Below, piece after piece: positions 3,970 through 27,568 of a stretch of DNA of 56,809 bases. Within the stretch, counting starts at the first letter, position 1. Every line of letters begins with the position of its first letter. The notes under the pieces are model-generated. The model saw only the letters and a list, made by a program, of their open reading frames with translations. It was not told the origin of the DNA and did not search any database. The position numbers were made by a program, and so were the translations under genes. Source of the stretch: a virus (taxonomy: Duplodnaviria > Caudoviricetes). The stretch spans positions 1 to 56,809 of the IMG/VR virus record IMGVR_UViG_3300046170_000220. The stretch is one strand, 5' to 3'.

Positions 3970-6315
3970 ATGGGACAGGTAACAACCCGCAGTCCCCTCA
4001 CTGGTAGACTCTACACCTTCAATGTAGCTGGAGATCAGCCGACAGAGCAGGAGCGTTTAGCTGTTGCTCAATATCTCATTGCGACTGAAGGTCAGACACA
4101 ACAGCCCCAGACATCTGAGCTAATAGAGCAAGAAGAGAGAGAATCCAATGCTCTTATTGATGCGCCTAGGGAGTTCACTAGGGGATTAGCAAAAGGTTTT
4201 GCCGACATCCCCGGAGGCCTAGCATCATTAGCCACTGCTATATCCCCATTAGATAGGTTTGGCCTTGGCTACGTTGAGGATTATGTTGAATCTGCCGGTC
4301 AGGGTGTAACGAAAGCTGCAAGAGAAGGCATCGACAATTTATTAGGTGAGCCTGTTGACACGCCTGTTGGAAAGTTTGCTGGCGCTCTTGGATCTATATC
4401 ATCTTACTTTGTGCCAGTTGGCGCAGCCGCCAAGGTTGCGTCTGGTTTGGGCAAGGGCGCTAAGGCCGTAACAGCAGCGGGTACTGGAACGGCTGCCGCT
4501 ATGGGTGTTCGCTCAAGGCTCGCAACAGCAGGTTGACAGAATTGCCAGACAGATAGAGCTGGGGCAAGAGGTAGACAACAAAGACCTAGCAGTTGCACTG
4601 GGTGGCCTAATTGGTGCCGGTGAATTTTTCCCACTGCAAAAAGCATTCAAAACATTTACAAGAACATTAAAGGGCGTCCCAAAGGATGCTAAGAAAGATG
4701 CTATCGAGGCATGGCTAAGTAAGGTAAACCTTAAAGCCAGAGCAAAGAGTGCTGGAAAGACAGGCTTGTTTGAGGCCGCTCAGGAAGCCACTGCTGGGAT
4801 GGGCGCAAGATCTCGTAGAAAAGAACCTGTACAACCCAGAGCCTTGATATAAGTTTAAGTTCATATCAGGATGACGCTATCTATGGTGGTGGCTGCTGGT
4901 GCTGCATTCAACTTCTTTGTTGATACCATAGCTGGCAGAAAGCTAAAGAAGTCTCTCTAACTCAAGGAATCAGCTTCAGCAGGATATGGATGAAGAGGGG
5001 CAGGCTAACAGGTCTCTGTTAGATAACGCAGAGACATCCCTTGGTACAGCCATGACCTTTGATGCAGAGGGAAATGAAGTCCCAAAGGGCGGCAGGCCAT
5101 TAATAGCTGCCCCCAAAGCAGAGCCTGTTGATGCTTTAGAAGGACAGGTGCCAAGCCCCACTCAAGACGCCGAGCCTACAGCAGAGCAGATCGCAGCGTC
5201 TGCGAATGTAAAGCAACTTGCGCTAGAGCCTAACAAAGAGGCGGAGCTTCAGAGCCGTAAAGCAAAAGAAATTCTGCTGGCAAACCCAACAGAGATAGAA
5301 GTAAAAGACCTGCCCGAAGATGAACAGGCCGCCGTGCGCCAGTACCGAATGAGAGCAGGGCTTCAAGATATTGAGGCACCACTCACAAGAGACGAACTTG
5401 AGGAAGCTGTGTCATCTACCCTTGGTGAGGACAGGGGCATTGAGGCTGCGAATCGTGAGGGATCGAAGAGGTTTCCCAGAAACCTTTGAGCCTAAGCTAA
5501 CAGAGAAAAAAGCAGCAGAAAGAAAAGCTGAAGCTGTTGTGCAGGCAAGGGTAGCTGAGGTTATTGAGGATGCCAAAGCTGGTCTTAAAAACGGAGAACT
5601 TCTCAAGAAGAACGGAACCATATCTCTTGGCAAGGTTAAGTCTAGGCTAAAGCTAAACCAGAATGAGGCCGTTGCCGTTGTCGATAAGCTCAAAGCTATT
5701 GGCTATGCCACACCTATTTCCCCGACAGAACTAAAGCCAATTCTACCAGAAGCCCGCCTCGAACCTGCAAACTTTACTAAAGTTCGCATGCTGCAAGACG
5801 GTGTGGCTAACAATAAAGATTATCTGGCTGGCGCAGAAGTCAGTGTAACTGACACGGAAGCATTAGTGTTGCAGCAAACAGGCGTTGCTGAACCCATCTC
5901 TGAAGGCCCGTCACCAGAGCAGGAAGCCCTAAGAGAGTTTCAGGTGGCTATGCAGGAGCTACAGTTCGACAGAGCAGAGCAGCAAAGACGCCTAGACAAA
6001 ATGAAAGAGGCTGGCGCTCAGGATCAGACTCAACAAATCATGCTGGAAAACCAGCAGCGCGTAGTCGATGAGGCAAACGCAAGGCTTCAGGCAGCCCTCA
6101 ACAAAGAGCAAGAGCTGCTAGCTAAGGCCAACCTCTCCAACCCTCAGAACTCTGATGGACTGCCAGCAGATCAGGTGCTAGCAAACGAAGCTCGACAGGC
6201 AGCGGAAGAGTCAACCGCATCTCAGCCAACTGAAGAGTACAAGCGGAAGATAAACACCGTAGCCAACCTGCTGCGTAAGTACATGTTTAAAGAGCTTGGC
6301 ATCAAGGGACGTTGA
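3970..6315 (+). CDS. N-terminal part of the giant ejection/polyvalent protein, broken by frameshifts (ORFs 3970-4536, 4505-4852, 4986-5489, 5371-6315)
   Basis: Overlapping same-strand ORFs with abrupt junctions; G/A-rich membrane-like segments followed by charged coiled coil; the last fragment overlaps ORF 6296. Confidence 0.6.
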
Positions 6316-9300
6316 CATTGTAACTGAGAATGTTCTTGAGCCTGACAAGATCAAAGACGGCTTTATTGTCGAGGGTTACTATGACGGTAGCGGCGAAGGC
6401 AGGAAGATCATCGCCCTTGCCATGGAGATATACGACCCGAACCTGACTGAAGCACAATTGTTCCAGCGTCTGCGTGGCGTCCTTAACCATGAGGTCATCC
6501 ACGCCCTGCGTGGCCTTGGCGTACTGACTGAGCAGGAGTTCGCCACTCTTGTTAAGGCAGCGTCTAAGCGTAAGTTTGTCAAGAAGGTTGGTGGTAGATT
6601 AGTCGAAAGAGACTACACATTCCTTGACCGCGCTGTAGCCATGAACGAAGGCCAGAGCATTGAGTATCAGCAAGAGGAAGCTGTTGCTGAAATGTTTAGG
6701 TCTTATGCTGATGGCAAGATCAAGGTTGCTGGCAAGCCTAGAACAATCTTCCAGAAGATAGGCAGGTTCTTCAAGTCTATATTCAACGCCCATAGGGATG
6801 CTGGCTTCACTGATGCGGCCTCTATCTTTGACAACATCCAATCAGGCAAGATTGGCAGAAGAGAGAGAAGCCTACAAAAAGCAGCGGCAGTACCAGCAGG
6901 AACAAAGTATTCCACCGCCGGTATCAGGGCCGGATTCCACGCGCCTGACATCGACAAGAAAGCTGCTGAACGCATAGGCATGTCCTTTAAGGATGTGACC
7001 AAGCGTGTAGAGGAGTTAACAAAAAGTGCAAATGAACTTTCTGATGGCGAAATAACCTACGATGAGTACGACAAAAGAGTTAATAAGTTCAAGCCGATCA
7101 TTCCGTACCAGACCGTACCAGCGCCAGCTACGACAAAAGAAATGGTCTCCGCTTTATCCGAAGGGAAAAAGGCTAAAGTGGGAAAAGCGTCAGAGATACA
7201 AGACAACACCCCTGTCAAACTAAGACTGGACATACCATCATACACACAGAAGGGTGTGTGGGTTCCCACCATCCACGGTCAAGACAACAGAACAATTGCC
7301 CACGAAAGCACAGCCATTGTTACCAATGCTAAGTTTTCTGCAAGCGACAGGACAGCTTTAAGAATAGCTAAGGGCGCTGCCAAAGGACCGTTTGCTACAA
7401 TTGATGGCATGTTTAAATATGCAACGCCAGACAATGCCTTTGCCGTAGCGCAAGAAATGTTGGCTGACCCAACAGTTGTTCAGGTTGGCTTTGATCCTGA
7501 GCGTCATTCATACTTCTATGACCGCACCACGACAGAGCCTGTTGTTTCAGCCGACTTAGTTGTACAGGTTGGCCCTCTTGTGCTGGCAAAGAACCCACAG
7601 TTTGCGCCTAAGTCTGACTTCAAGTATTCGGTGGCAAGGACTCAGGGATTAAACACAATAAGAGAGTTTATTAAAAACAACCCAGACGGATTTACCATAA
7701 CATCTCAGGGCGTTTCTGTCCCGATAGGAACCCCCGATAGTGGTATCGTAGTCGCTCCAATTAAGGACGCGGAACTTATTGTAGGTGGTGATATACCAAT
7801 CAATGTTCTTAGGGAGTATATCGAAAACGCTAAGGCTATGTCAGGAATATTTAACAGAGAGGTTTTCCTTGGAGGCTGGCTCAACAATGACAATGGCAAG
7901 TATTACCTTGACAACACACTCATAGTAAACGATAAGGCAGAGGCACTCTATTTTGCTCAGGCGGCGAAGCAAATAGCTGTTTATGATTTGAGAGTGCCGC
8001 CGTATGGACAGGAGATAGTTACAGATGAAGGAATCAAACAACTCCAAGAAGCCGGTATTTATAGGAGTGACACCGCAGAGCAATACAGAAGAAGTATTGA
8101 GCGAGCTAGTGGCCTCTTTAGAGCGGCAAGGATTGAAAATCAAAGACAAAGAGAAGCCGAGGCAAGCCTAGCTGCCAGAGCTTACTCGGTAGCCATTACC
8201 CCAAAGGCAGACCCTAACGGCAACGTGCGCCTTACTCACTACTCTCCTATGACAGACCTTGAGGTTGTTAACCCTGAAGAGCAAGGCTCTAACTACAGGA
8301 TGCGTGGAGAAGAGAGGAAGAGGCAGGCATCAGCTTGGCGGCAGGACTACCCAGCAAGAAGTTACTATGGCCTTAATGTTGGCGAAGAGGGTGGTTACTC
8401 TAAAGAGTATTCTGTCGGAGAAAATGTATATGTTGCCGATGTTCCTCTTGCAGACCTATATAACTTTGAAGAAGACCCAGAGGGATTCAAATCTAAAGCT
8501 GATGGCATGATAACCGATAGGGTTATGGAGCTTTCTTGGGGTGACCCTCAAGGATTCATCCTGACTCAGGCCGAGAAGATGGTTGCTGATGCTGGTTACT
8601 CTGGGTACTACACCAACACCCCAATGGGCTTGGTTGCTGCGATGTTTAACCCAATTAAAGTTAGGCCTAATATTGCTGACGCAAAGAAGTTTTCTATTGC
8701 GAGGCTGTCTCCAGCAGAGATAGGCCTGACATCAATCAACAATGTTAACACCGAGCTTGGCGACCCAGTAAACAATTACTATGTACAGCAAGCCCCATAT
8801 GGCAGCGTTGCTATGCAGACTGCTGTGCTAAAGATGCAACAAGATCGCGGTAACGTGGTTCTGAACTGGGACAACCCAGATAACTGGGAAACATTAGCAC
8901 GGCTTATGGCGGCAGAGGCTGAGGTTGCCCTGTCGCGAGATAAGAATGCTCTTGGTTGGTACGACAGAACACTCGATACCGCCAAGCGTGTCACATCTAT
9001 ATTGTTCCCAGACATCAAGCCAAATACAGATGCTGAAAGCGCATTCATATTTGCTACTGCCGTTACATCAAACGGTGTTCCTGTTATTGGTAACTGGCAA
9101 GCAGCAGCAGAGCAGTACAAAAACTGGAAAGAAACAGGACGGTTTATTGAGAAGGGTTATGGAGACCAAGGCTCCAGCATGATCCCAGCATTCCAGCTCT
9201 ACAATGCAATGAAGGATCTAAACTACACAGACCTTGAGATTAAAGACTTCCTGAATCAGAAGATGACTGTAAGTGAGTTACGGCAAAATAATCTCTTGAA

Positions 9301-12300
9301 AGAGCTGGGCTACAAAGACAGTGGAGCTGAATCGGCAGACACTGAAGTTTTTGTATCATACATTCTGGGACCAAAAATCGGTCAAGGTTTTTACCAGAAC
9401 CTAGTTGGCAACTTTAACACACTCACCATGGATCGATGGTGGATGCGGATGTTTAACCGTATAAGTGGTCAGCCTTTCGTTAACCCAGAGCGTCCTGAGA
9501 CATTCGATAAGCGTGTATCTGAGATCATTGAGTTTTCAAACAACCCTGTATCTGATGCAGAGTCCACGATTATTAACGTGGCAAAGGCTGAAATTAATGC
9601 TGACATCATCACGCCTGAAAATGTTGATGAGTTTTCGTATGCGGTTAATAGATATTTTCAGAGGGTCTATAAGCGCCTGACACAAAGTATTAATACAGCA
9701 AAGGAATCTCTGGCTATTGCAGAGCAGTCTGGAGATTCTGCCGCAATACAGAAGGCAACGGATGATCTTCTCAACGCCGAGAAGAACAGGAATAGAGACC
9801 CCAACAAAATATTCCTGCCATTCAAGTCACGTTTGTTCCAGCGTGTAAGTGGACACGTTAAGAAGCTGGAAGATGCCCGCAAAGGCGGAGCCATGCAGGA
9901 AGACCCGCGCTCTCCAAAGCAGCGTCAAGCCATGAGGGCAATAGCTAATCGAGCAAGAGAGATAGTCCAAGAGGATCTTGGCACCTCAATGTCTAACGCA
10001 GATTTTCAAGCGCTGATGTGGTATCCTGAGAAAAATCTCTTTTACTCTTATGGGGTAAAGAAGGGTCAGGGTGACGACAATGATTACATAGATGGGGCAA
10101 TAGCACTATTAGAAAAGGAAGGTTACAATGTTGACACCATCGCGCAAGCACTCCCCGAATCAGACGCAAGGATCGTCAATGATAGAAAGGGTGCCGCAGA
10201 ATCGTATGAGAGAACTGGTATTGAGCTTACAGAACCAGATAGACCAGAAGAAGGCGCAGTCGGTGATGCTGGAGGAAGAAAGCGAAGCGTAGCTCGCGTA
10301 GCTCCTGAACGTGATTATTCTATGCCAACTCAGGTTCTGTCTGACAGGATAGACCAACAGGCAAAGAACCACACATATGATAACGCATCTCGCATTCTTG
10401 CCAAGGTTATCCGTGGCGCTACATTCGGTAATGTCAGTAAGCAGAAAGCCCAAGGATTATCTGAAAGGTTCCTGACCAAGTATCAGGACTCTATGCTGCC
10501 GCTTGGCAAAATGCTAGACGAGATACGCGCCAACCCAGACAACGATATGGTCGATGCCTTTGATGCGTATATGCAGGAAGAGCTTTCTCAGGGCGTAGCC
10601 GGTGCCAGAATAGCGAACAACACTCAAGATTTCTTTGAGCCTATTGCGGAGGCTATGAAGAACATTGATGTGTCAGAAGTTCAATTGAACTCTATTGGCT
10701 CCAAGTATATTAGAGACTACCTAGCAACAGAGGCAGACCCACGGCAGGTGATTGCTGACGCTTACCTATATGCCAGACACGCCAAGGAAAGAAATAAGTA
10801 CATCCTAGATAGGTACAAGCGCGGTAATGGATCGGGTATGTCTGATGCTGAGGCAGATACCATACTGTCTTGGGTGAACGGTCAGCCAGTTGACATAAAG
10901 GCAAGCCTTGATGAGGTTGCATCCATAGCTGACCAGATTATTGAAAGCACAAACGCCTTCCGTAAAGAGGGTGATCTTATACCTGACTTTGCACAAGTAG
11001 CCGCCGACCCTGAGTCTAAATGGCAGCCAACAAACTTCAGCTTCTATGTCCCGTTACGAGGAACCTTAACCCCTGAAGAGGAATCAGTAGACGACTTTGG
11101 TAATGTGCCAAGGAGAACGCCCAATCTATATGGCGCTAGAGGGCGCAACGATGCTCGCATGCAGGGTCGCGGCAACGAGTACGCCACTGACATCGTGTCT
11201 CACTTGATGGCGCAGAACATGCTGACTATCCAGAGGGCTGAGAAGAACAAGGTTGGCAAAGCTTTCTATGACATGGTTGCCAGTGATCAGGTTGACACTG
11301 CCGACTATGCAGAGATTGTTAATAAGGTTGCTGACCCTGACAACACATTGACTGTGAAGATCAATGGTGAGGACAAGTATGTTGAGATCTTTGACGACCG
11401 TATAGCAAGAGCAATGAAGGGGGCGATGACACCACAAAGTCAGAGCGGCCTTGTCAAGTTCATGGCTGGTCTGAATCGGCTACTGTCAAACATGAATACA
11501 TCATGGAACCCTGAATTTGTTCTATCGAACTTTCCAAGAGACTTGGAGGCAGCGGGTGTAAACCTAGGCCAGTATGATGAGAAGGGTCTAACAAAGGATG
11601 TGATAGCCGGAGCCTTTCCAGCAGTTAAAGGTATAGGTGACTTCCTTAGAACAGGGAACATATCAAGCGAGTGGTCTGGATGGTACAAAGAGTTTGTTGA
11701 CAACGGGGGCAAGAACGCAACAAACCAGATGTCTGACTTACAGGACAGCATGAACAGCATCAAGTCAGTTCTTAACGACATATCAAACGATGGTCTGTCT
11801 AAGAAGTTTGGTGCCATGAAAAACAAGTTCACTCAGAGCGGCATCATTAAATTCCTAGATGACTGGAACACAGCAGTTGAGAATGGTGTCCGTGTTTCCC
11901 TTTATAAACAACTAGTTGAGAGGGGTTACTCGCCAAAGAGAGCGGCGCAAGCAGCGAGAAACATCACCGTTAACTTTGCTAAGGGTGGTGAGGAAAGAGC
12001 CTTCATGAATGCTTGGTTCCTTTTCTACAACGCATCACTGCAAGGCACGATGGCATTAACTAACGCAGCAGTTCGCTCGCCTAAAGTCAGGAAGCTTTGG
12101 ATTGGCCTGTTGATGTATGGATTCATGCAAGACATGATCCTTGGATCAATGTCAGGTGATGAGGACGAGGATGGCAAGAGTGACTATGACGAGATTGGTG
12201 ATTACGAGTTAGAGCATAACTTTATATTGCCAACATTCGGACTAGCTGACGAAAAGTATATTGCGATTCCGCTTTCATATGGACTCAACATGGCGGTAAA

Positions 12301-13138
12301 CACTGGAAGGTCTGTAAGCAGATTAGCCAGAGGTGAGTACACTCCAAGCCAAGCCGCCGGTTCCATCACCGGCACAGTCCTTGAGACACTTAACCCGCTC
12401 GGCTCTGGAATAGATGATTACGAAAACATCCTTGCCCCAACTGTGGTTGATCCGTTCCTTTCAGTGGCAATCAACAAGGACTACAAGGGCGCACCGATTT
12501 ACAAGGAAGGCTCACCATTTGGTTTGGCAAAGCCAGACAGTCAAATGTACTGGAACAACACTGGGCCTATACCAAAGTTTATTGCTGATCAGGTTAACAA
12601 ACTAACAGGAGGCAGCCGCGTGACTCCGGGGTATGTTGATATGTCTCCAGATGTTTTGGAGTTCTGGTTCAACTACCTAACAGGAGCAACTGGTGCGTTT
12701 GTTAAGCGTTCCATTGAAGCGCCTGTAAATATATATGATGCAATACAGGGCGACTTTGAAGGCACTCTTGTTGAGACCATTCCATTTGTTAGAAAAGTTG
12801 TAGCCACTCCCACCGAAATACAGGACATGGGTACTTACATTGAGAATAAGGACAAGGTTCTTAGAGCGCGTAAGGAACTTGAGACAGCAATCGCATATGG
12901 GGAAGTCGAACAAGCAAACGAAATCAGAAAAGAATATGCAAAGCTTCTGAAAATTTATGGGCTGATCAAAGGATTTGAGAACGCTAGGAACAGACTGATC
13001 AGGAAGAAGAACGAGATCAAGAACAGTCCACGCATACCAGAAGAGCGCAAATCTAACTTGATCCAGAAGATCAACGAGAGGATCAAGGAGATAGTCACAA
13101 GATCAAACAAGGTCATGTATGATGTTGGGATACGGTAA
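6296..13138 (+). CDS. Giant polyvalent virion protein: zincin metallopeptidase, several effector-like domains, LPD38-like C-terminus
   Basis: HEVIH...EEAVAE zincin motif; LTHYS...RSYYG...AGYSGY ART-like segment; GPKIG...TMDRWW...QALMW HhH-GPD-like segment; ARNITVNFAKGG...FLFYNASLQG typical of LPD38-type C-termini. Confidence 0.75.
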   Translation: MASRDVDIVTENVLEPDKIKDGFIVEGYYDGSGEGRKIIALAMEIYDPNLTEAQLFQRLRGVLNHEVIHALRGLGVLTEQEFATLVKAASKRKFVKKVGGRLVERDYTFLDRAVAMNEGQSIEYQQEEAVAEMFRSYADGKIKVAGKPRTIFQKIGRFFKSIFNAHRDAGFTDAASIFDNIQSGKIGRRERSLQKAAAVPAGTKYSTAGIRAGFHAPDIDKKAAERIGMSFKDVTKRVEELTKSANELSDGEITYDEYDKRVNKFKPIIPYQTVPAPATTKEMVSALSEGKKAKVGKASEIQDNTPVKLRLDIPSYTQKGVWVPTIHGQDNRTIAHESTAIVTNAKFSASDRTALRIAKGAAKGPFATIDGMFKYATPDNAFAVAQEMLADPTVVQVGFDPERHSYFYDRTTTEPVVSADLVVQVGPLVLAKNPQFAPKSDFKYSVARTQGLNTIREFIKNNPDGFTITSQGVSVPIGTPDSGIVVAPIKDAELIVGGDIPINVLREYIENAKAMSGIFNREVFLGGWLNNDNGKYYLDNTLIVNDKAEALYFAQAAKQIAVYDLRVPPYGQEIVTDEGIKQLQEAGIYRSDTAEQYRRSIERASGLFRAARIENQRQREAEASLAARAYSVAITPKADPNGNVRLTHYSPMTDLEVVNPEEQGSNYRMRGEERKRQASAWRQDYPARSYYGLNVGEEGGYSKEYSVGENVYVADVPLADLYNFEEDPEGFKSKADGMITDRVMELSWGDPQGFILTQAEKMVADAGYSGYYTNTPMGLVAAMFNPIKVRPNIADAKKFSIARLSPAEIGLTSINNVNTELGDPVNNYYVQQAPYGSVAMQTAVLKMQQDRGNVVLNWDNPDNWETLARLMAAEAEVALSRDKNALGWYDRTLDTAKRVTSILFPDIKPNTDAESAFIFATAVTSNGVPVIGNWQAAAEQYKNWKETGRFIEKGYGDQGSSMIPAFQLYNAMKDLNYTDLEIKDFLNQKMTVSELRQNNLLKELGYKDSGAESADTEVFVSYILGPKIGQGFYQNLVGNFNTLTMDRWWMRMFNRISGQPFVNPERPETFDKRVSEIIEFSNNPVSDAESTIINVAKAEINADIITPENVDEFSYAVNRYFQRVYKRLTQSINTAKESLAIAEQSGDSAAIQKATDDLLNAEKNRNRDPNKIFLPFKSRLFQRVSGHVKKLEDARKGGAMQEDPRSPKQRQAMRAIANRAREIVQEDLGTSMSNADFQALMWYPEKNLFYSYGVKKGQGDDNDYIDGAIALLEKEGYNVDTIAQALPESDARIVNDRKGAAESYERTGIELTEPDRPEEGAVGDAGGRKRSVARVAPERDYSMPTQVLSDRIDQQAKNHTYDNASRILAKVIRGATFGNVSKQKAQGLSERFLTKYQDSMLPLGKMLDEIRANPDNDMVDAFDAYMQEELSQGVAGARIANNTQDFFEPIAEAMKNIDVSEVQLNSIGSKYIRDYLATEADPRQVIADAYLYARHAKERNKYILDRYKRGNGSGMSDAEADTILSWVNGQPVDIKASLDEVASIADQIIESTNAFRKEGDLIPDFAQVAADPESKWQPTNFSFYVPLRGTLTPEEESVDDFGNVPRRTPNLYGARGRNDARMQGRGNEYATDIVSHLMAQNMLTIQRAEKNKVGKAFYDMVASDQVDTADYAEIVNKVADPDNTLTVKINGEDKYVEIFDDRIARAMKGAMTPQSQSGLVKFMAGLNRLLSNMNTSWNPEFVLSNFPRDLEAAGVNLGQYDEKGLTKDVIAGAFPAVKGIGDFLRTGNISSEWSGWYKEFVDNGGKNATNQMSDLQDSMNSIKSVLNDISNDGLSKKFGAMKNKFTQSGIIKFLDDWNTAVENGVRVSLYKQLVERGYSPKRAAQAARNITVNFAKGGEERAFMNAWFLFYNASLQGTMALTNAAVRSPKVRKLWIGLLMYGFMQDMILGSMSGDEDEDGKSDYDEIGDYELEHNFILPTFGLADEKYIAIPLSYGLNMAVNTGRSVSRLARGEYTPSQAAGSITGTVLETLNPLGSGIDDYENILAPTVVDPFLSVAINKDYKGAPIYKEGSPFGLAKPDSQMYWNNTGPIPKFIADQVNKLTGGSRVTPGYVDMSPDVLEFWFNYLTGATGAFVKRSIEAPVNIYDAIQGDFEGTLVETIPFVRKVVATPTEIQDMGTYIENKDKVLRARKELETAIAYGEVEQANEIRKEYAKLLKIYGLIKGFENARNRLIRKKNEIKNSPRIPEERKSNLIQKINERIKEIVTRSNKVMYDVGIR

Positions 13139-24945: not shown

Positions 24946-25962
24946 TTACAGGATAAGATGCTTGCCATCTGACAAGATCCACTGGCGAACCGCCTCAACA
25001 TTTTTTAGATCACGATCACGCGCCAGCGCATCTTTGATAACGAAAGCTGCGAACTCTTGTTGCGGTAACCGCTTGAGGTATCGGATCACATTGCCAGCGT
25101 TGGCCTTGCTCATTTTGTAGGCCAGTGCTGACGACACCGCATAGAGTACAGCCGGATCATCAGGCAGCACCGCGCTATCAGGGTTAGCAATAAGCTGATC
25201 CATATCAGGCACTGCTTCGTACACACGCAGGAAGCCGATAAAATCAGCAGCGGCTGGGCGTCCAACCTGACCGGCGATTGCTTCGGTCTGGCAGACTGCA
25301 TCTAATCCCCATGACAAAATGCTCGACACCCGATCCCATGATCTTGGTGATGGGCATGCGCTGGCGTCACGCTCAAACTTGTGCAAGAACTCAGGCCGGA
25401 ACCTGATAAAAGCACAGACCTGCTGGGCAACGCCTTTGGCATTGTAATATTTGATAGTGTCATCGAGGTCTGCCTCAACTTCCAAAAACATCAGGCGGTC
25501 ACGCAGATGCGTTGGCATGTTGTTGGTGCCAGCCCTGTCACTGGTGCGGTTGCCAGCGGCAACGATAGACCAGCCATCAGGCAAGCGGTGATCACCGACA
25601 CGCCGCTCATTAACAATCTGGGCAGCAATGTTCTGATTAGACACTGGTGCTTGTGGCAGTTCATCCAAGAACAGAATGCCCTCACCATCCTTGGGCATCC
25701 AATCAGGGCGAAGCCGTTTCATTCCATCGCCATCATTGACAAGCCAGCCAGCCAGTTCACCGGCATCATATTGGGCAAGGCTCACGATCTTACAATCGAG
25801 GTCGCGCTGTTCTGCAATCTCTTGAATGATTGAGGTTTTACCAAGACCAGCACCGCCGACAAGGTATGGCACGACACGACAAGCGTCACGCCCTGTTGAT
25901 TGATTTACTTGGCTGTCGATTGAAGCCTCGACAATAGCTTTTGCTTGCGACAGTTTCATCAC
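24946..25962 (-). CDS. MoxR-like AAA+ ATPase (partner of the VWA protein)
   Basis: Walker A GGAGLGKT, Walker B LFLDE, AAGNR, PSPRSW. Confidence 0.88.
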   Translation of the reverse strand: MMKLSQAKAIVEASIDSQVNQSTGRDACRVVPYLVGGAGLGKTSIIQEIAEQRDLDCKIVSLAQYDAGELAGWLVNDGDGMKRLRPDWMPKDGEGILFLDELPQAPVSNQNIAAQIVNERRVGDHRLPDGWSIVAAGNRTSDRAGTNNMPTHLRDRLMFLEVEADLDDTIKYYNAKGVAQQVCAFIRFRPEFLHKFERDASACPSPRSWDRVSSILSWGLDAVCQTEAIAGQVGRPAAADFIGFLRVYEAVPDMDQLIANPDSAVLPDDPAVLYAVSSALAYKMSKANAGNVIRYLKRLPQQEFAAFVIKDALARDRDLKNVEAVRQWILSDGKHLIL

Positions 25963-25985
25963 TATCTCCCATTTGGTTAAATACA

Positions 25986-26051
25986 GCGAGACGCTGCGAC
26001 ACTGCCGGAGCAGTGTTTCGGGGGTGTCTCACGCCCCCATCTTCAGGCAGC
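25986..26051 (-). ncRNA. Type I hammerhead ribozyme HHR-A (predicted cut between 25998 and 25997)
   Basis: Minus strand: gcugc CUGAAGA u ggggg-cgugagaca-ccccc GAAA cacugc-uccg-gcagug UC gcagc gucucgc; three helices and the full core. Confidence 0.9.
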
Positions 26052-26702
26052 TTAGGCAGCTTCAAATGCGGCAATGACATCATCAACATCATTATTTTCT
26101 GCTTCGACAGAAGCCTTGGCAGCAGCGGCAGCCTCATCAGCAGCCAGCCTTGCAGCCTTATATTCGCGATAGAAGTTGTCGAACTCATCCCAGTCTGACT
26201 GGTCAAACTTGGAAGCTTTGAAGTTGCCAGCCACTGTGGTTTTACCGAACAGTTTTTGAGCCAGCTTTTCCATTTCGCTTGCTGCATCAGCGTCTTTGAC
26301 AAACGCCGCCAGCTTGGCCTCCGAGGTAATGCCCTCATCAGTGAAAAGCTGAAAGACATATGAAGGGGTGCAATTTGCTGAAGGGATATCCAACTTGCGG
26401 AATGCACCAGCCGAATTTTCGACATACCGCTTTGTGGTTGCATCAGAGCAGCCGCCATCAGTGCTGAGGTCTTCCCGAATGCGCTTTGAAACAGCGCGGG
26501 GGAAGTGTTTATTCTTGCCGTTGCCGGTCAGCTTCACACCAGCATTTGCAATCGCGCTGATCAGTTCAGCGTAGGCCGTGATCTTTGCAGCATTGACCTG
26601 CTCAGAGTTGGCCTTGTTTGTGGCCTTCAATGCGCCAATCTCGCCCTCAGTGTTTGCGATAGTGTCTAGGGTATTCTGTGAAAGTTCAAAAGTGCTTTGC
26701 AT
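26052..26702 (-). CDS. Ala-rich hypothetical early protein flanked by two hammerheads
   Basis: ATG 26702 lies 6 nt after GGGAGA; the stop codon abuts HHR-A. Confidence 0.75.
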   Translation of the reverse strand: MQSTFELSQNTLDTIANTEGEIGALKATNKANSEQVNAAKITAYAELISAIANAGVKLTGNGKNKHFPRAVSKRIREDLSTDGGCSDATTKRYVENSAGAFRKLDIPSANCTPSYVFQLFTDEGITSEAKLAAFVKDADAASEMEKLAQKLFGKTTVAGNFKASKFDQSDWDEFDNFYREYKAARLAADEAAAAAKASVEAENNDVDDVIAAFEAA

Positions 26703-26732
26703 GTCATGTCTCCCATGCTTCAAGGTTAATAG

Positions 26733-26796
26733 CAGGACGCTATGACCCAGCGGGTGCTGGGTTTCGCCAGTGTCCTAAGCTGGCTCATCAGATAGC
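26733..26796 (-). ncRNA. Type I hammerhead ribozyme HHR-B (predicted cut between 26744 and 26743)
   Basis: Minus strand: gcuau CUGAUGA gccag-cuuaggaca-cuggc GAAA cccagc-accc-gcuggg UC auagc guccug; canonical core. Confidence 0.93.
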
Positions 26797-27032
26797 TAAA
26801 TGGCGATGTATTCGGTCAGGCGTAAAGTGCCTTGCTTTACCAGCTTGCCGTTTTGCATTAGGTAATAGGCGTGAAAGCGGCGGTTCTTGTAGACCGCAAT
26901 CATCTCAGGCTGTTCACCAAATGCCTTGTTGCAGCGTTCAATGTATGCACCCAAAGCCTTGATAGTTGGCTTGAGCGGATAAAGAGTTGTCTTGCCATTA
27001 TCGTTTAGTTGATTAGCTGAATACATATTCAT
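26796..27032 (-). CDS. Small hypothetical first early protein
   Basis: MNMYSANQL... after GGGAG; the stop codon abuts HHR-B. Confidence 0.65.
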   Translation of the reverse strand: MNMYSANQLNDNGKTTLYPLKPTIKALGAYIERCNKAFGEQPEMIAVYKNRRFHAYYLMQNGKLVKQGTLRLTEYIAI

Positions 27033-27035
27033 TCT

Positions 27036-27087
27036 CCCTGTTTCGCGTGTCTCTTCAATAACTGGGTTACGATCCCCAGCGACAGGG
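27036..27087 (-). ncRNA. Variant type III hammerhead-like motif HHR-C
   Basis: Minus strand: cccug UC gcuggg-gaucguaa-cccagu ua UUGAAGA g-acacg-c GAAA caggg; helices I and III intact, core deviates (U for C3, 2-nt insert, 1-bp helix II). Confidence 0.5.
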
Positions 27088-27337
27088 TTATTCATCTGGT
27101 GCGCTCTAAACCGGCGCATTATGGGATGGGTGCTAAACCAAGCCCTCAGTCTTACCACCGCATCAATTATCCTAGTGTCAGGCCTAATCGATTTTTGCTT
27201 GGGCGTAGGCGTATTCAGATGCCATCAGAGCCGTAGTGCGGTGGTGTCCAGTTCGGGGGTGCTAGCCCCTGCCCCAGTGGGCGTTTGATCTTTAGCGGTG
27301 GCCTCCTCAAAAATTTTCAAAATCAAAATTATTCCTT

Positions 27338-27367
27338 GTCGTATCATGCGGGGAATATATCTGTCAA
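27338..27367 (-). promoter_or_regulatory. Probable early promoter
   Basis: Minus strand TTGACA (27367-27362), TGnTACGAC at 18-nt spacing, AT-rich upstream. Confidence 0.45.
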
Positions 27368-27568
27368 ACAGAAAAATGCACATAGAGTAATTTTATTTTT
27401 CATAGTGTTTCATAGTGTCTCACATAGCAGACGATCCAACCCATAAAATTATTGTAGTGCTAGTGAACTTTTTTATTTTTTACCTGATGCTGTTTGGGCT
27501 GGTCTGAGGCGGGTATATATATAGGTGTAGCGGTAACCCCTAAAATTCGTTTGTACACAAACAAGTTT

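Follow-up and report, generated by a model that had tools for sequence, protein, structure and literature searches.

The virus record IMGVR_UViG_3300046170_000220 (Duplodnaviria; Caudoviricetes) carries two type I hammerhead ribozymes, here named HH-A and HH-B, at the stop codons of two consecutive genes, gene A and gene B, on the minus strand. The stretch analyzed, referred to as the window, is the complete record of 56,809 bp, with direct terminal repeats present. Both elements are real type I hammerheads, and a variant type III element lies in the leader ahead of gene A. This arrangement suggests that the minus-strand operon is probably cut by its own ribozymes into gene-length mRNAs, the new 5' ends of which would be capped by a hairpin.

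Two type I hammerheads at consecutive stop codons

The two elements are located as follows.
26739 to 26796, minus strand: HH-A, type I hammerhead, stems of 5/5/7 bp, loop II of 9 nt, predicted cut between 26744 and 26743
25993 to 26051, minus strand: HH-B, type I hammerhead with an extra U after A9, stems of 5/5/7 bp, predicted cut between 25998 and 25997

Both are 58-59 nt long and share the same order, namely the stem I 5' strand, CUGANGA, a 5-bp stem II hairpin with a 9-nt loop, GAAA, a 7-bp stem III hairpin closed by the pair A15.1-U16.1, C17 and the stem I 3' strand. The core positions C3 U4 G5 A6 N7 G8 A9, G12 A13 A14 and a non-G H17 are complete in HH-A and HH-B, and core and stems match the type I consensus exactly. 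The minimum-free-energy fold of each element alone is the three-way junction, and stem I is the helix with open ends. A first-pass annotation of this DNA, made from the letters alone, had placed two complete type I hammerheads at 26796-26739 and 26051-25993, starting right at stop codons, which agrees with the structures described here: the UAG of gene A (26798-26796) shares the first G of HH-A and the UAA of gene B (26054-26052) adjoins HH-B. The 5' ends expected by that annotation, 26743 and 25997, coincide with the predicted cuts, and the next start codons fall within the proposed distance of 35-50 nt, with AUG 26702 at 41 nt past the first cut and AUG 25959 (or GUG 25962) at 38 nt past the second (counted to 25959). 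Each cut is followed by an A/U-rich spacer, a GGAGA-type ribosome site and a start codon within tens of nucleotides.

Relatives were collected among phage contigs of IMG/VR, the loci of which are labelled L001 and so on. The pattern derived from a first alignment returned 39 stretches in viral contigs, after which model R1 was built. It yielded 56 matches, 42 of them distinct, from 40 sources, and a broader model, R2, gave 56 matches across 52 loci. The extra U between A9 and stem II of HH-B is found in 33 of the 42 distinct rows. Over these rows 99.4% of the cells are paired, changes on both sides occur in 17 of 22 pairs, and all three stems covary. The observed covariation values were reached by none of 500 shuffles, and slid controls dropped to 25-56% paired. 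Fitting the alignment to the model biases it towards pairing, but the compensatory changes are nonetheless genuine differences in sequence. A fourth helix is a 5-bp pseudoknot in which loop II pairs with the five nucleotides past stem I. Across the family this helix is 99% paired with three covarying pairs, and its pairings are AGGAC with GUCCU in HH-A, GAGAC with GUCUC in HH-B and a third version in L053. The loop II halves in the window are as follows.
26772 to 26776, minus strand: loop II segment AGGAC of HH-A, 5' half of the pseudoknot, partner 26738-26734; covaries
26026 to 26030, minus strand: loop II segment GAGAC of HH-B, 5' half of the pseudoknot, partner 25992-25988

Because the cores are canonical and the helices covary, HH-A and HH-B are very likely capable of self-cleavage. 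It is hardly conceivable that they are chance look-alikes without an RNA function. A failure of Rfam to match them, described below, would fit such an origin, but the matches stand far above random expectation, and covariation, recurrence in a family and the shuffle controls contradict it. A descriptor scan of both strands of the window returned only HH-A and HH-B as type I matches, and 300 first-order Markov random windows, scanned with laxer stems of 4/3/3 bp, gave six matches in total, or about 0.02 per window. With the family covariance model run over the whole window with filters off, HH-A and HH-B scored 85.2 and 85.0 bits; the next best match reached 10.4 bits (E 1.6). A candidate type II hammerhead with stems of 8/3/4 bp was also seen by the descriptor only, at L033 6600-6534 on the minus strand; the same contig has five type I copies.

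The stem I copy, the predicted 5' hairpin and the leader element

Downstream of each cut, the freed stem I strand is followed by the pseudoknot tail and a second strand to which it can pair.
26729 to 26743, minus strand: stem I 3' strand of HH-A (26743-26739), pseudoknot tail GUCCU (26738-26734) and copy of the stem I 5' strand (26733-26729); predicted flush 5'-terminal hairpin after the cut, -3.2 kcal/mol
25983 to 25997, minus strand: stem I 3' strand of HH-B, pseudoknot tail GUCUC and downstream complementary strand (25987-25983); predicted flush 5' hairpin, -6.6 kcal/mol

The energies are those of the first 15 nt of each predicted product. Across the family, pairing in the hairpin helix reaches 94.3%, and the helix covaries with position 1.1. 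Nucleotide 1 or 2 is paired in 38 of 40 distinct 3' products compared with 279 of 2000 shuffles, a biased count, since tail columns were part of both the pattern and model R1, so that most of the 40 are close relatives. Among six divergent copies with unrelated tails, four (L053:7751, L037:2850, L037:3816 and L032:1843) form the same hairpin from other letters. The active fold and the hairpin fold of the two elements have calculated energies of -22.6 versus -23.0 and -28.2 versus -26.7 kcal/mol, to which the pseudoknot would add about -5 kcal/mol in favour of the active form. We read this exchange of the stem I strand as a one-way switch: after the cut, a stem I made of two molecules is predicted to lose to a hairpin made of one. 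In the type III topology, stem I itself remains on the downstream product as a flush 5'-terminal hairpin. Thus the downstream mRNA would acquire one kind of end from either solution at a gene boundary, the type III stem I or the type I downstream copy. A limited literature search surfaced no described hammerhead that caps its product with a 5' hairpin, which does not show that the feature is unpublished.

The third element precedes gene A.
27036 to 27087, minus strand: leader element, variant type III hammerhead with a 6-bp stem III, C17 at 27081, a stem I hairpin, UAU replacing C3, and a stem II of one G-C pair

Its predicted cut lies between 27081 and 27080, 54 nt ahead of AUG 27026. The element, which had been annotated as a variant type III motif at 27087-27036, is homologous to intact type III hammerheads at the same site, directly before the first small gene, in L026, L028, L050 and L053. 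An RNA-library contig of a relative also has the intact form at this place (from 27089), and the variant recurs in L001/L017 and L005. C3, the partner of G8, is not present directly after stem I; UAU stands between stem I and U4. With C3 out of register, cleavage of the leader element is not to be assumed. The 16 distinct leader copies divide evenly. In eight, stem I is followed immediately by C3, and two of this group carry an extra base after A6; in the other eight this site holds UA, CA or UAU, or else an entire additional hairpin that ends in UAU. Within the leader family, stem I is 97% and stem III 91% paired, stem I covaries, G5, A6, G8, A9 and GAAA are retained, and a helix between loop I and loop II, of 3 bp in the window (CGU with ACG), changes in step across the family (UGGU/ACCA, CGUA/UACG, UGU/ACA). 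The paired stems, the loop helix changing in step and the kept core indicate that the variant is a maintained RNA, a putative ribozyme and not a one-off wreck. The stem III 3' strand extends into the ribosome site in all 16 copies, in the window into that of gene A, so that a cut in the leader could free a covered ribosome site.

A hammerhead with an extra base after A6 was weakly active, and insertions beside C3 in viruses of halophiles left nearly no activity except at very high salt, the one tested precedent (Perreault et al. 2011, PMC3088659). In position and kind of lesion the leader element resembles the HHphage ribozyme of haloviruses HF1 and HF2, a variant in which additional nucleotides adjoin C3. 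HHphage lies immediately ahead of the first ORF in a polycistronic early transcript, and the mapped 5' end of this transcript is at most 3 nt from the cut (PMC3088659). In HF1/HF2 the insertion is between 2.1 and C3 and C3 is kept, whereas in the leader family two to three nucleotides (UA, CA, UAU) stand in place of C3. The hosts of HF1/HF2 are extreme halophiles in which high salt rescues activity (PMC3088659), whereas the present phage comes from seawater.

Leader core variants also occur at L027 2136-2188, L048 10011-9952 (minus strand) and L023 8606-8676, two of them with an extra base after A6 and one in which a whole small hairpin separates stem I from the core. The untranslated leader that precedes the variant hammerhead (27100-27400) shows about 90% conservation among relatives, and RNA-library contigs extend over it. 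Promoter prediction gave nothing in this part, and a TTGACA near 27357, noticed by eye, was rejected as a promoter for want of an acceptable -10 box.

The structures at the new 5' ends also bear on the direction in which cleavage would act. It could lower or time expression by exposing the downstream RNA, or by stripping the upstream RNA, to host nucleases, as with the 5'-OH product of the glmS ribozyme. The weakened cores in eight of 16 distinct leader copies could tune the rate of such a process. The flush 5' hairpin in 38 of 40 distinct products argues against it, because a 5' stem-loop on a bacterial mRNA impedes, and does not invite, 5'-end-dependent decay. The genes served are, moreover, ordinary replication-region genes. 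Ribozyme processing could yield transcripts of differing stability according to a review (PMC6765202); down-regulation as the purpose of the elements is nevertheless considered improbable.

Gene context and placement in related phages

The ribozymes lie at the head of a replication-side block, just past a divergent intergenic region (about 27.9-27.1 kb). From 27929 onward the plus strand encodes the small terminase, a DUF1289 protein, the large terminase, the portal and virion proteins. The minus-strand block extends from about 27.1 kb to 13.3 kb (about 14 kb) and includes replication and recombination genes: its contents are gene A, gene B, a MoxR-like AAA ATPase, a DUF2201 metallopeptidase/VWA protein, an exonuclease and a Sak-like annealing protein. 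Its first genes are as follows.
26796 to 27026, minus strand: gene A, 76 aa, without a match to any family; the last base of its UAG stop is also the first of HH-A
26052 to 26702, minus strand: gene B, 216 aa, phage-only hypothetical protein with a ribozyme on either side
24946 to 25962, minus strand: gene C, MoxR-like AAA ATPase (phrog_1297), the first gene past HH-B
24930 to 23764, minus strand: DUF2201 metallopeptidase/VWA gene, following gene C

No Pfam or PHROG family was found for gene B, and a protein atlas returned phage hypothetical clusters only. The first-pass annotation had proposed one ribozyme per gene boundary, which holds for the first boundaries; the rest of the block of about 14 kb has none.

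Synteny in related phages, which had been named as a check, was found: the 56 family copies in IMG/VR contigs share one gene order, lie on the coding strand and adjoin stop codons. This conserved order consists of an optional leader type III element, one or two small genes, a type I element, a gene of about 222-240 aa, an optional type I element, sometimes a small gene, and the ATPase. For 34 of the 56 copies, the stop codon of the longest upstream frame either overlaps the first ribozyme base or lies directly against it. In 14 copies the best upstream frame enters the core and stops at the UGA of the core; several of these frames are very short. L053 harbors four consecutive ribozymes, and one contig (L033 together with L037) has five matches to model R1.

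The type of hammerhead at a given boundary varies. Three type III hammerheads each are found in L003 (687-745, 1467-1521 and 1990-2043) and L004 (2620-2678, 3400-3454 and 3923-3976), where they occupy the boundaries that hold type I elements in the window; the ATPase of these loci is 73% identical. Gene B is 38% identical (E 1e-29) to a 221-aa gene of L004 that is bounded by type III hammerheads on both sides. This indicates that the boundary is conserved and the permutation type of the ribozyme is not.

A search with the ATPase returned 14 IMG/VR loci, six of which have hammerheads; type I elements are present in four of the 14, namely L001 (twice), L002, L005 and L014. This variable presence, together with the resemblance of copies inside one genome, would suit selfish or relic elements that spread by duplication and recombination and are tolerated. 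Successive cuts might also give circular or spliced RNAs, products that were raised but not detected by Perreault et al. (2011, PMC3088659). Such an origin is, however, very improbable. The elements are tightly packed on stop codons and ribosome sites, compensatory changes occur in every helix, a different permutation type is found at the same boundaries, and reverse transcriptase or repeats are absent nearby.

The closest relative, L017, is about 91% identical to the window at 28000-27024 and 90% identical from 26805 on, and the gene A that lies between these parts is unrelated. The segment 27024-26805 of the window is replaced by 1699-1863 of L017, and the encoded proteins of 76 and 58 aa share no similarity. 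The first match ends at the start codon of gene A and the second resumes 9 nt before HH-A. Contigs of other relatives, from RNA-library data, stop matching at the same boundaries, 26798 and 27026. Thus, as judged from these alignments, a gene swap between relatives is bounded by ribozyme cassettes. This raises the question of whether the cassettes are insulators or module boundaries, which give each gene a fixed 5' UTR, make it exchangeable and double as recombination joints. The genes between the ribozymes vary among contigs while the cassettes stay, in line with this explanation. Yet few joints were observed, phage mosaics are expected to break at gene boundaries anyway, and covariation points to selection on the RNA fold and not on DNA identity. 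As the explanation of the cassettes, insulation is rather unlikely, and it is compatible with the processing model.

In the ribozyme-free loci L008, L009, L012 and L013 a plain G+C-rich hairpin occurs in a 35-nt gap after a 226-aa gene (for example L008 1703-1737). Such plain hairpins may be a protein-nuclease site or a stabiliser in the same role.

The ribozyme region had no blastn matches in GenBank phages. A search for hosts with the family pattern in 185,579 species genomes gave 51 stretches, none of which scored as a family member; among them there was one weak match (23 bits), and only one met the descriptor, with minimal stems. Sequencing runs with a matching stretch are mainly seawater DNA metagenomes, with small shares in two salt-marsh RNA libraries. 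Elsewhere in the window, an ORF at 6296-13138 on the plus strand encodes 2280 aa, of which the C-terminal 900 residues match very long phage proteins without an assigned function (phrog_14770, phrog_616).

Proposed processing of the operon and comparison with known systems

In the proposed model, one RNA would start in the divergent intergenic region (about 27.9-27.1 kb) and run through the leader, gene A, HH-A, gene B, HH-B, the ATPase and onward. Each type I hammerhead would fold on leaving the polymerase. The five nucleotides past stem I would pair with loop II, the resulting pseudoknot would hold stem I alongside stem II, and self-cleavage would follow after C17. The upstream piece would end just past its stop codon and retain the folded ribozyme body with a 2',3'-cyclic phosphate. 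The downstream piece would start with a 5'-OH, and its second copy of the stem I 5' strand would capture the freed 3' strand in the flush terminal hairpin. Formation of the hairpin would release the products and make the cut one-way. The spacer, ribosome site and start codon would follow, so that the net result would be gene-length mRNAs with fixed, hairpin-capped 5' ends regardless of the upstream sequence. The motifs, their covariation, the pseudoknot, the potential to form the hairpin and the conserved placement are observed; from these we infer cleavage, its timing and any effect on stability or translation.

Several points weigh against the processing model, in addition to the bias in the hairpin count noted above. 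The Infernal search with Rfam that the first-pass annotation had suggested gave no hammerhead for any of the three elements, neither for the whole window at gathering score nor for the region at E<=10 nor with RF00163 on the genome. However, the same search missed intact relatives of both subfamilies (L026, L028 and L053) even at E<=10 with RF00163 and RF00008, and other type III relatives (L003 and L004) score 39-47 bits with RF00008, just below its threshold of 48.5 bits. This indicates that the miss reflects a limit of model sensitivity or of the seed set. The first-pass annotation had also called the operon the earliest one; the replication and recombination genes in the block are consistent with this, but a simple sigma-70 scan of the minus strand upstream of the operon found no promoter. 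The salt-marsh RNA libraries contain only contigs of relatives of about 90% identity, including one that covers both ribozymes; RNA ends do not show in assembled contigs, and the libraries may include carried-over DNA. No hammerhead occurs at these boundaries in eight of the 14 ATPase loci (L006-L013), and the elements are thus dispensable. Cleavage must also compete with translation, since a ribosome that reaches the overlapping stop codon to terminate would open stem I. Finally, a 5'-OH end had been expected to resist RNase E, but this enzyme can enter RNA directly without a 5' monophosphate (PMC2948425, PMC4191395) and the protection argument is therefore weaker than stated.

Processing of a polycistronic phage mRNA without protein fits the anatomy seen here, with elements on the coding strand at stop codons and a ribosome site and start codon following, but the idea is not new. 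Several hammerheads flanking single genes were described in prophages by Perreault et al. (2011, PMC3088659), who proposed that long phage transcripts are processed into gene-length mRNAs. Three of their arrays cleaved in vitro and one in E. coli, and pseudoknots were found in all three types and were required for fast cleavage (PMC3088659). Processing is thus the standard hypothesis for clustered phage hammerheads and the arrangement is already described; the present analysis adds the stem I copy after each ribozyme, the type III hammerheads at the same boundaries in relatives and the gene swaps that break at the elements. The purpose of clustered phage hammerheads was still called unknown in a 2019 review (PMC6765202) and a 2023 paper (PMC10085705). 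The prophage clusters of Clostridium scindens, Azorhizobium caulinodans and Agrobacterium tumefaciens resemble the present one in that mixed types flank single genes or short blocks, stems I and II are joined by pseudoknots and the same role is proposed (PMC3088659). The prophage clusters were shown to cleave (PMC3088659), whereas cleavage of the present elements is predicted. The present elements also differ in belonging to a free marine phage genome with other neighbour genes. In addition, a second stem I 5' strand comes after each type I copy in this family, a feature of which there is no mention in the consulted parts of the text of PMC3088659.

Two further systems are comparable, one natural and one engineered. 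The early transcript of phage T7 is cut between early genes by RNase III, a host protein enzyme that leaves 5'-phosphate and 3'-OH ends. Both T7 and the proposed model arrive at gene-length mRNAs with structured ends by cuts between early genes; unlike in T7, the RNA would cut itself here and carry 5'-OH and cyclic phosphate ends. The plain hairpins at the matching boundary in L008-L013 might be protein-cut sites of the T7 kind. Synthetic insulators of the RiboJ type, engineered from a type III satellite-RNA ribozyme, consist of a self-cleaving hammerhead and a downstream hairpin before the ribosome site and provide a fixed 5' end. The present cassettes share the hammerhead, the predicted hairpin ahead of the ribosome site and a 5' end that would be fixed regardless of the upstream sequence. 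However, the hairpin of RiboJ is a separate unit, whereas here it reuses the stem I 3' strand and could form only by displacing stem I.

A bolder form of the processing model is possible but doubtful. The stem I 3' strand would pair first with its upstream partner, as the active ribozyme, and then with its downstream twin, as the cap. Each gene would thereby become a portable module with a standard, nuclease-shielded 5' end, and the leader element would be slow by design and control when the first gene is translated, its ribosome site being uncovered only after cleavage. If this is true, the cassettes would be a natural forerunner of synthetic ribozyme insulators. Current Rfam models overlook whole subfamilies of phage hammerheads, and routine annotation will not flag such elements. 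The family provides a clean test system, with two canonical ribozymes and one core variant in one small operon and dozens of natural relatives in which ribozymes are present, absent or of another permutation type at the same boundaries. The conserved hairpin that would cap the products leads to a specific prediction on mRNA stability and insulation in these phages.

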